IMG/VR virus record: IMGVR_UViG_3300037466_002980
Span: 128,001-192,000 of that record
Length of the DNA: 64,000 nt
Strand: one strand, 5' to 3'
From: a virus
Taxonomy: Duplodnaviria; Heunggongvirae; Uroviricota; Caudoviricetes
A program made the translations under genes and the position numbers. Shown one piece after another: positions 4,165 to 47,520 of this stretch; the first letter of the stretch is position 1; every line of letters starts with the position of its first letter. The notes beneath the pieces are model-generated. The model saw nothing but the letters and a program-made list of their open reading frames with translations, was not told the origin of the DNA and made no database searches.

Positions 4165-4264
4165 TGGTATCCCCACTGGGGTTCGAACCCAGAACGTGCG
4201 CTAATCTGGCGCCACGAAGTGCCACTTTATAAGAGTGGTGTTTTACCAATTAAACTACAGGGAC
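4165..4264 (-). tRNA. tRNA-Ile(TAT) with very large two-hairpin variable region
   Basis: CCACT-CTTATAA-AGTGG arm, about 29 nt insert, T arm CTGGG-TTCGAAC-CCCAG, ACCA. Confidence 0.75.
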
Positions 4265-29383: not shown

Positions 29384-29460
29384 TGGCGCCCTGTGCGGGA
29401 CTCGAACCCGCAGCAACAAGGTGTTAGAAGCCTCCACTCTACCAATTGAGTTAACAGGGC
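29384..29460 (-). tRNA. tRNA, best register gives anticodon CTA (amber suppressor candidate; alternative TCT/Arg)
   Basis: Perfect acceptor, D and T arms; anticodon arm GAGGC-TTCTAAC-ACCTT; GCCA end. Confidence 0.6.
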
Positions 29461-32469: not shown

Positions 32470-32638
32470 GGTTATTGAGTAATAAGGTTACCAACCCCAC
32501 TTCACTTCATCACTGTTTAAGCAGCGAGAGCGAAGACAGCGTCATTTGCTGCGTTTATAGTTTTGCTTGATTTACGATCATCGCCTATCGTGTTGTCCAT
32601 TCCCTTACTATTGACCCTGTCGAAACCTTGACTGGCCC
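32470..32638 (-). ncRNA. ssrA: tmRNA coding piece (two-piece permuted tmRNA)
   Basis: 5' GGGCCAG...GGTTTCGAC; tag frame 32552-32517 encodes AANDAVFALAA*. Confidence 0.9.
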
Positions 32639-32639
32639 A

Positions 32640-32837
32640 TCATAAGAAAATTTGATCACCTTGTTTATCACAAAGCATTGTGTAAAAATCCCCAGGTCCG
32701 CCTACATATTTAAACATCCACATGCCCTGATTTGCTTCTCGTTCGGTACGAACTAAGATAATCTTTTCAGTAAACTTAGCACCTTGCAATACAGGTAATA
32801 TGTCTCCGGTCTGGGTTTTTACATAAATCTTCATCAA
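32640..32837 (-). CDS. 65 aa ORF filling the tmRNA intervening segment
   Basis: AAGGA SD right after the CCA; stop lies 1 nt before the coding-piece 5' end. Confidence 0.55.
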   Translation of the reverse strand: MMKIYVKTQTGDILPVLQGAKFTEKIILVRTEREANQGMWMFKYVGGPGDFYTMLCDKQGDQIFL

Positions 32838-32846
32838 ACTTCCTTA

Positions 32847-32910
32847 TGGTGGACCAGGCGGGAGTCGAACCCGCGTCCAGAACCCGTTTCTGTTCACTTC
32901 ATACAACAAT
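32847..32910 (-). ncRNA. ssrA: tmRNA acceptor piece
   Basis: GGAC-GCGGG-TTCGACT-CCCGC-CTGGTCC-ACCA; pairs with GGGCCAG to give G3:U70. Confidence 0.9.
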
Positions 32911-32929
32911 AATTTTTATTATATATTAC

Positions 32930-33598
32930 TTACCATAATAAATCAAAATTACCACGCATCACCTTTTCAACACTAGATGATTTTCCGCTGTTATGATCTT
33001 TAACCATATCATCTTGAAAACGATAGGTTCTTATTTTATCACCTCGCATACCAGATCCAACCTGTTCTTTTCTTATTGCGGTAAGCTCCTTAACTTTTTC
33101 ATATCTATCTTCTAATATTAATCTTTCGATTAATGAACTTTTAGCATCGTCGAGGCTATTTGTTCTAGATCTACTTTGAGAAACTGAAACCTTGCCAGTC
33201 GGTATATGAGTAATACGACAGGAATTTTGATGTTTGTTTCTATGTTGTCCGCCGGCACCAGTTCCACTAAACCATTCAATCTTAAAATCCTCATCTTTAA
33301 TTTCAAGACATTGAATTTCTGGATCAATTACAGCCACGGTAACAGTACTGGTATGAACTCGACCTTTTCGTTCGGTTGGTGGAATGCGCTGAATTCTATG
33401 TCCTCCGCATTCATTATTAAGCATAATTAAATCATTACCACGAACTTCAATAAAAATTTCTCCGGGTACCTGTTTAATTATACGATTAATTCAGCCAACT
33501 CTATCAAAATGTTTTTGATATGCTCTAGCCAGGTCGGCTGCGAATAATTTGCTATCCTCACCACCTTCGGCCGCACGAATTTCAATAATTCTCTTCAT
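32930..33598 (-). CDS. prfA: RF1-type class I release factor lacking domain 1, with in-frame TGA at codon 36
   Basis: AGGAG SD and ATG at 33598; IEIRAAEGGEDS, TGA at 33493-33491, then same frame HRIQRIPPTE, VHTST, GAGGQH, KIRTY. Confidence 0.85.
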
Positions 33599-33639
33599 TG
33601 CAATCTCCTAAGGTTAAAAATTGATTATATGTTATTTCT

Positions 33640-33912
33640 TTATTTTGTGCAAGTGTTCAGAGCAGAACGAAGTTTTTCTTCATAACCTAGATGATTTAAT
33701 CTATCTGCTAGAAGCGCCTGAACCTTAGTTCTCACATCTTCTTCTGTAGTTAAACTATCAAAGTTATCTTTAGGTTGTTCGGGTTCTGCAACACTACATG
33801 GTTTTTCAATTGGAACTTCCACTCTTTGTGTTTCTACCTTAACACCGGGTGGGGTGGTAGCACACGCAGTAAGAAAAAATGCCATTAGAAGGAGAATACT
33901 ATTTTTTACCAT
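33640..33912 (-). CDS. o-spanin-like lipoprotein
   Basis: Lipobox LTAC, Pro-rich, overlaps the upstream TM coiled-coil gene. Confidence 0.75.
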   Translation of the reverse strand: MVKNSILLLMAFFLTACATTPPGVKVETQRVEVPIEKPCSVAEPEQPKDNFDSLTTEEDVRTKVQALLADRLNHLGYEEKLRSALNTCTK

Positions 33913-41063: not shown

Positions 41064-41970
41064 AGGACTGAGATTACATCCTTACTGATCGGTACCTCGT
41101 ATATTATTTCAATATCTTGCGGGATATTGATTCTTACGATATCCACTAGGTCTGTTTTCACAGTATCCTAGTCTACCGACAACATCGCCTTTTAAAGTCA
41201 GGCAGTAGACTTGACATGATATTCTACTCTATAATTTCCATTCCGTCTGCCTTGCGAGCAGTTCATTGGTGCTAACCAATTACGAAACATCTATTATAAA
41301 TCAACTTGGCCTTGCGAGCTTTCGTCGAACTTAGTTACCTTACGGTCTAAGTATTAGATGTCTTTCAAATATCACCGAGGCAGTCTTTGCATTTTAATAC
41401 ACGGTTGGAATCGAACCAACTGCTTTCTGTTAGGATACAGACACTCTACCAAATGAGTTACATTGCAACCTACTATGATGTGCTACCTCAGCTGCTATAT
41501 ACCTTGTTAGATACACAATACAGCACACCACGTATCTTTCATCTCGCGGATTACTCGATTGTCTTTCACGATATATGTCAAGAGTCTCGGCGTTTTCGCG
41601 TATCTTGCCATTTACCATTCAAACTGCATTCAAGCCCTTACTTGCGAGGTTCGGACAAGAACACTACCCTTTCTCATACCAATTAACAAATTGGTTTATT
41701 GTGAGGTCAGCACCACCTGTTACTCTCCGCCAACTAACGTTCCCTTTCGGCGTTTAAGTTGGCGTTCTTTCCACAACATTTGCTTTATTGTTACTTCGTC
41801 CGGTCTTATCAGACAAAGCTCCCTCACGGGAGTGAGCAGGCCTGCTTAATGATCCATTACTGGCGGTAGTATGTAGGCTTCCTACCTTTTTCACTCCTTG
41901 CGGAGATCCTTCTTCAATAACCAGCTGGGCGAACCATACTGGTTATTAGGGGTTCAAGCTCCCCGAAATT
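41064..41970 (-). ncRNA. GOLLD-like large ncRNA (about 900 nt)
   Basis: Many GNRA-capped hairpins (GCAA, GAAA, GTAA), internal GAGTAACAGGTGGTGCTG, 3' GGATGTAATCTCAGTCC, inside a phage tRNA cluster; family assignment is from recall and 5' boundary is approximate. Confidence 0.65.
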
Positions 41971-47446: not shown

Positions 47447-47520
47447 TGGCATCCCGGGAAGGACTCGAACCCTCACAAACAGTTTTGGAGACTGTGGTGC
47501 TGCCATTACACTACCGAGAT
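47447..47520 (-). tRNA. tRNA-Trp(CCA)
   Basis: ACAGT-CTCCAAA-ACTGT, G73. Confidence 0.93.

Follow-up and report, generated by a model that had tools for sequence, protein, structure and literature searches.

A conserved in-frame UGA followed by an RNA hairpin in a short RF1-type release-factor gene of a 363-kb phage

Can a phage release-factor gene be functional when a stop codon interrupts its reading frame, and if so, what would such a stop be for? The question is raised by a gene in a 64,000-nucleotide stretch (hereafter the window) comprising bases 128001-192000 of the complete 362,810-bp virus record IMGVR_UViG_3300037466_002980, which has direct terminal repeats and 36% G+C. The original prediction, based on the sequence alone, was that an RF1-type gene at 32930-33598 carries an in-frame UGA at a Trp-equivalent position, and that programmed readthrough makes the factor only when host RF2 activity is low, so that the gene would be a second translation-stress sensor distinct from the prfB +1 frameshift. 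Every element of the observation is confirmed by our analysis. The interpretation is partly supported: in-frame decoding of the UGA is strongly supported, whereas the low-RF2 logic remains a plausible inference from RF2/tRNA competition.

An RF1-type gene interrupted by one UGA

The gene and its surroundings, all on the minus strand, are organized as follows (window coordinates).
33624..33651 (-), promoter-like site (TGCACA-16-TATAAT) just upstream of the gene, a consensus match only (10 of 12 positions)
33605..33609 (-), Shine-Dalgarno sequence AGGAG, 6 nt before the ATG at 33598-33596
32930..33598 (-), short RF1-type release-factor gene of 222 codons, corresponding to domains 2-4 of RF1 without domain 1, ending in TAA at 32932-32930
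33494..33598 (-), codons 1-35, the start of domain 2 including the EGGxD helix tip
33491..33493 (-), in-frame UGA, codon 36, in the context GGC UGA A (the gate)
33421..33483 (-), predicted extended RNA hairpin of roughly 62 nt starting 7 nt after the UGA, within codons 39-59
32517..32908 (-), permuted (two-piece) tmRNA gene, 22 nt downstream (Rfam RF04321, 122 bits; ARAGORN tag AANDAVFALAA)
47447..47520 (-), phage tRNA-Trp(CCA)

The table-11 list of open reading frames shows only a 164-aa tail (32930..33424) and a 35-aa head (33491..33598). Read through the TGA, the product matches Pfam PCRF (residues 4-88) and RF-1 (residues 94-202). Its best NCBIfam match is prfA (TIGR00019 / NF001859), but only over model positions 107-333 of 347 and at 194 bits against an equivalog cut-off of 400; domain 1 is therefore absent and the four-domain architecture of bacterial RF1 is not present. 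A match to PrfH (TIGR03072) reached 44.9 bits against a cut-off of 166.65, and only over the GGQ domain. The product aligns over residues 2-219 with Thermotoga maritima RF1 at E 3e-43, and the TGA falls on the Trp of 'RKGW'. Gln70, which replaces the Val of RF2, and Pro73-Pro74-Thr75 align with QRVPVT of the T. maritima protein. An AlphaFold model (pLDDT 87.5) superposes best on ribosome-bound T. thermophilus RF1 (TM 0.90), whereas RF2 chains give 0.76-0.86. Gln70 and the PPT motif are invariant among 81 genes (see below), and Gly116-Gly117-Gln118 are invariant in the same 81 genes and in 42 aligned proteins.

The conservation of the TGA in homologs had been named beforehand as one of the points on which the prediction would stand or fall. 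A scan of IMG/VR returned 80 loci at 60-72% protein identity, out of 253 confirmed. All 80, plus the gene in the window, have exactly one in-frame stop; it is always TGA and always at the homologous codon. In contrast, all 189 other Trp codons in these genes are TGG, including Trp109 in 81 of 81. SD-like motifs lie before the start in relatives as well. Six copies in bacterial genome assemblies, at 43-71% G+C, also keep the TGA. Among the bacterial-genome copies are those in the cultured Alphaproteobacteria Jiella sp. LLJ827, Thalassospira xianhensis MCCC 1A02616 and Gemmobacter caeni DSM 21823 (loci L153, L154 and L159), presumably in prophages, which makes the device directly testable. The Gemmobacter copy has lost the PxT motif (PLG).

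Codons 1-35 and 37-222 show invariant residues carried by up to six synonymous codons across the 81 genes (Leu18 and Arg8 use six codons each), so that both flanks are under protein-level selection and are translated in this frame. A broken gene or a sequencing error, which a single stop in an otherwise intact gene and its truncated gene calls might suggest, is refuted by these data. Translational bypassing of the T4 gene 60 type is likewise rejected, because codons 37-60 remain under protein-level selection. No conserved start codon follows the gate, and gene callers pick scattered V, L or M starts that give 164-183-aa fragments on long contigs. Public gene calls of this family are truncated to this size on contigs of up to 369 kb, whereas roughly 105 full-length 222-aa calls carry W at position 36, all of them on contigs of about 1-6 kb (one 197-aa call on a 1.1-kb contig also keeps the W). 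This suggests that metagenomic gene callers switch to code 4 on short contigs, an annotation artefact; these genes are at present either truncated or read through, probably under the wrong genetic code.

A gene-specific stop in a standard-code genome, followed by a hairpin

The phage uses the standard code. Of 423 ORF-genes in the genome, 265 end in TAA, 122 in TGA and 36 in TAG, and the same frame stays open after TGA no more often than after TAA (6.6% against 11.7%). The complete genome of a relative (G001, 369 kb) was compared with every ORF of this genome read through TGA or TAG. After removal of alignments that lie inside a longer ORF of another frame, the release-factor gene is the only case of a conserved in-frame TGA found in this comparison. 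A code-4 phage, in which TGA means Trp, would have many such genes and a tRNA(UCA), and this genome has neither. A search for other genes with early in-frame stops gave nothing convincing, and the Pth2 gene of this phage has no early stop.

A dedicated opal-suppressor tRNA, phage-encoded but unrecognised or host-encoded, could also open the gate, which would then act as a timing switch tied to tRNA expression and not to RF2 level. ARAGORN found 46 tRNA/tmRNA genes over the complete genome, none with anticodon UCA. Rfam found no tRNA(UCA) either over the window, which holds 43 of the 46 (42 tRNAs plus the tmRNA). One tRNA seen by Rfam but not by ARAGORN, at 4168-4264 (-), has anticodon UAU (Ile) and a roughly 25-nt insertion in the variable region. 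No tRNA(UCA) was found in the tRNA clusters of relatives G001-G004. However, a fifth relative of 343 kb (G005, the record of locus L044), whose RF gene has the same UGA gate, has two tandem 77-nt tRNA(UCA) genes (L097:794-870 and L097:930-1006). They are ordinary cloverleaves with discriminator A and resemble neither tRNA-Trp nor tRNA-Sec. In addition, the RF gene always lies inside or beside the phage tRNA or tmRNA arrays on the same strand. This phage does carry a suppressor tRNA, although for UAG: a tRNA with anticodon CUA at 29384-29460 (-), labelled 'Pyl' by ARAGORN and present in G001 too, for which no convincing in-frame TAG target was found in this genome. An efficient opal suppressor would also read through the 122 genes that end in TGA; this reading is considered unlikely.

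RNAalifold with default settings gave no consensus structure, and the hairpin appeared only through per-sequence folds, register statistics and sliding z-scores. Folds of 68 distinct genes share one register, in which a 20-pair helix plus a 5-pair apical helix begins 7 nt after the UGA. In the alignment, 68% of cells form standard pairs, against 32-53% for slid registers and 62.7 +/- 0.5% for shuffles, and the covariation score is 0.240 against 0.173 for shuffles (0 of 500 shuffles reach either value). Because the structure was derived from these same sequences, the slid control is partly favourable by construction. The independent test is a sliding window of 72 nt with dinucleotide shuffles over 37 genes, in which only +9..+80 from the UGA is strongly structured (mean z -3.83, 92% of genes below -2), every other position in the gene lying between -0.1 and -1.4. 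The phage's own hairpin folds at -17.4 kcal/mol (z -2.08). It is weak or absent in some high-GC prophage copies (L153, L157, L159) and inconsistent in the distant huge-phage clade. The base after the gate is A in 55, G in 17, C in 9 and U in none of the 81 genes, against T at 26% of genuine TGA stops of this genome, although constraints on the next amino acid may contribute to that.

A UGA followed closely by a conserved hairpin could also indicate selenocysteine insertion through a bacterial SECIS element. This is very unlikely: the homologous residue is Trp (bacterial RF1 and one relative) or Leu/Phe in other clades and never Cys, the apical loop varies in sequence and lies about 37 nt from the UGA, no Sec-type tRNA is present, and the gate is exchangeable with frameshift sites, as shown below.

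Other gates in relatives and the proposed mechanism

Related short RF1-type genes carry other gates at or near the same place (L numbers denote individual loci).
Huge phages LR745206, LR756502, LR756504 and LR756501, and IMG/VR loci L118-L123 and L129 (short PPT-type genes): one or two in-frame TGAs about 6-23 codons further on
L124-L128, L130 and L131 (about 1095-1116 in each locus): a prfB-like site, GGAGGGGU-CUU followed by UAG in some and by UGA in others, at the position equivalent to codon 36, with the rest of the gene in the +1 frame
L158, a copy in a Hahella MAG (2090-2140): TGG at codon 36 and CUU-UAG-C five codons later
LR756511 (L084): no gate

Of about 107 short PxT-type genes examined, only LR756511 has no gate; one further genome copy (L155) is cut off by its contig end in the gate region. 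Selection therefore acts on having a predicted low-efficiency recoding step early in the gene, and the residue at codon 36 is most likely Trp.

Taken together, the best explanation appears to be programmed UGA readthrough in competition with host RF2, a reading in which we have moderate confidence. In this view, most ribosomes probably terminate at the UGA through host RF2 and release a 35-residue fragment, whereas a fraction decode it with a near-cognate tRNA, most likely Trp-tRNA(CCA) of the host or the phage, and go on to make the 222-residue factor. Only RF2 reads UGA, and with its RF1-type codon-reading residues the factor is expected to act at UAA and UAG and not at its own gate, so that its yield would be set by the balance between RF2 activity and UGA-reading tRNA. 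The phage tRNA-Trp has a U11:A24 pair as in the Hirsh suppressor, but this is only a weak hint, since relative G004 has U11-G24. The hairpin sits where readthrough and frameshift stimulators usually sit, although hairpin-stimulated readthrough is not known to be established in bacteria. The sequence analysis itself demonstrates the gate, its conservation, its uniqueness in the genome, the hairpin, and the RF1-type motifs and predicted fold; that readthrough occurs and yields full-length product, that Trp is inserted, that the hairpin stimulates it, that the factor releases peptides at UAA and UAG but not at UGA, and that the purpose is to couple its synthesis to low RF2 capacity or to the rise of phage tRNA are all inferred.

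The purpose could be sensing of low RF2 capacity, coupling to the phage tRNA array, or simply limiting the dose of a potentially harmful extra release factor. The last possibility would look the same in sequence, and it fits the finding that any of several low-efficiency recoding devices occupies the same spot in relatives. However, a weak ribosome-binding site or promoter would do the same job and would not be expected to stay fixed as TGA in 81 of 81 diverged genes with a dedicated hairpin and a strong AGGAG site, so that a plain expression limiter without a sensing role is considered unlikely.

The two tRNA(UCA) genes of relative G005 complicate the low-RF2 logic, and a pure RF2-sensor logic also does not predict that relatives with identical PPT and Gln motifs use UAG, an RF1-cognate stop, or UGA interchangeably at their frameshift gates. 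This would be explained most simply if the factor read both codons. The short factor, with its invariant Pro-Pro-Thr, which is not known as the usual bacterial form, and no domain 1, would then read UGA as well as UAG and UAA, and the UGA, UAG and frameshift gates across the family would all be true prfB-like negative feedback loops. Large phages would thus carry a self-limiting, omnipotent release factor that does not use the domain-1 contacts of the host factors. This reading is not excluded but is doubtful, since the Gln70 and Pro..Thr determinants are those that exclude G at the second stop position, and the fold model is closer to RF1 than to RF2.

Comparison with known systems and neighbouring features

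Recoding inside release-factor genes is the textbook case of translational autoregulation, but it is known only for bacterial RF2 and for giant viruses of amoebae; our literature search found no paper describing an internally UGA-gated RF1-type gene in phages. As in bacterial prfB, an in-frame UGA lies early in a class-I release-factor gene, so that the yield of full-length factor would depend on how well that stop is recognised. In contrast to prfB, the same frame continues in 81 of 81 genes, the context is GGN UGA without a CUU codon or an SD-like element 3 nt upstream (these features are present in L124-L128, L130, L131 and L158), and the stimulator candidate is a downstream hairpin. Because the gene is RF1-type, its own product should not read the UGA, which would make this cross-regulation by host RF2 and not feedback. 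In 8160 bacterial prfB motifs the stop is TGA in 98.6% and never TAG (preprint 10.1101/2024.09.24.614795), whereas the phage family uses both.

The release-factor gene of Mimivirus (R726) and Megavirus (mg280) also needs readthrough of a conserved UGA, with Trp-tRNA carrying a Hirsh-like adenine in the D arm as the proposed reader (Jeudy et al. 2012, PMC3521657). That factor is eRF1/aRF1-like, sits in a virus of amoebae, and also needs a frameshift, whereas the factor described here is bacterial RF1-type without domain 1, would need a single readthrough, and has a hairpin; there is no sequence relation between the two genes. The A1 protein of RNA phage Q-beta is made by UGA readthrough with tRNA-Trp, and A after UGA reportedly makes the stop leaky (Engelberg-Kulka 1981). 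Readthrough stimulated by hairpins or pseudoknots occurs in animal and plant viruses (review PMC13517186). These cases share a leaky UGA decoded by a near-cognate tRNA, with purine or C after the stop and a structure about 8 nt downstream, but they extend a protein beyond its normal end to make a second product. Here the stop lies inside the only functional product, at a conserved Trp, and would gate synthesis instead of diversifying it. Finally, stop-codon-recoded phages carry RF1 or RF2 genes beside tRNA genes, and suppressor tRNAs occur in large phages (Borges et al., preprint 10.1101/2021.08.26.457843; Al-Shayeb et al. 2020, PMC7162821). Those RF genes are described as standard-code genes serving a genome-wide code change, whereas this phage keeps TGA as a stop in 122 genes, has no tRNA(UCA), and has one conserved in-frame TGA, in the RF gene itself. 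If the main reading is correct, this large, widespread family would be a natural example of structure-associated stop-codon readthrough in a bacterial system, and possibly a device by which a phage reads the host's termination capacity or its own tRNA supply.

The neighbourhood of RF gene and permuted tmRNA recurs in the closest subclade (L002, L004, L005, L006, L013 and L014). The tmRNA also scores as betaproteobacterial tmRNA, which hints at a proteobacterial host and at a small termination and rescue module. The window also holds a GOLLD RNA at 41065-41531 (-) (Rfam RF02032, 199 bits), with a tRNA-like element inside it at 41401-41463.
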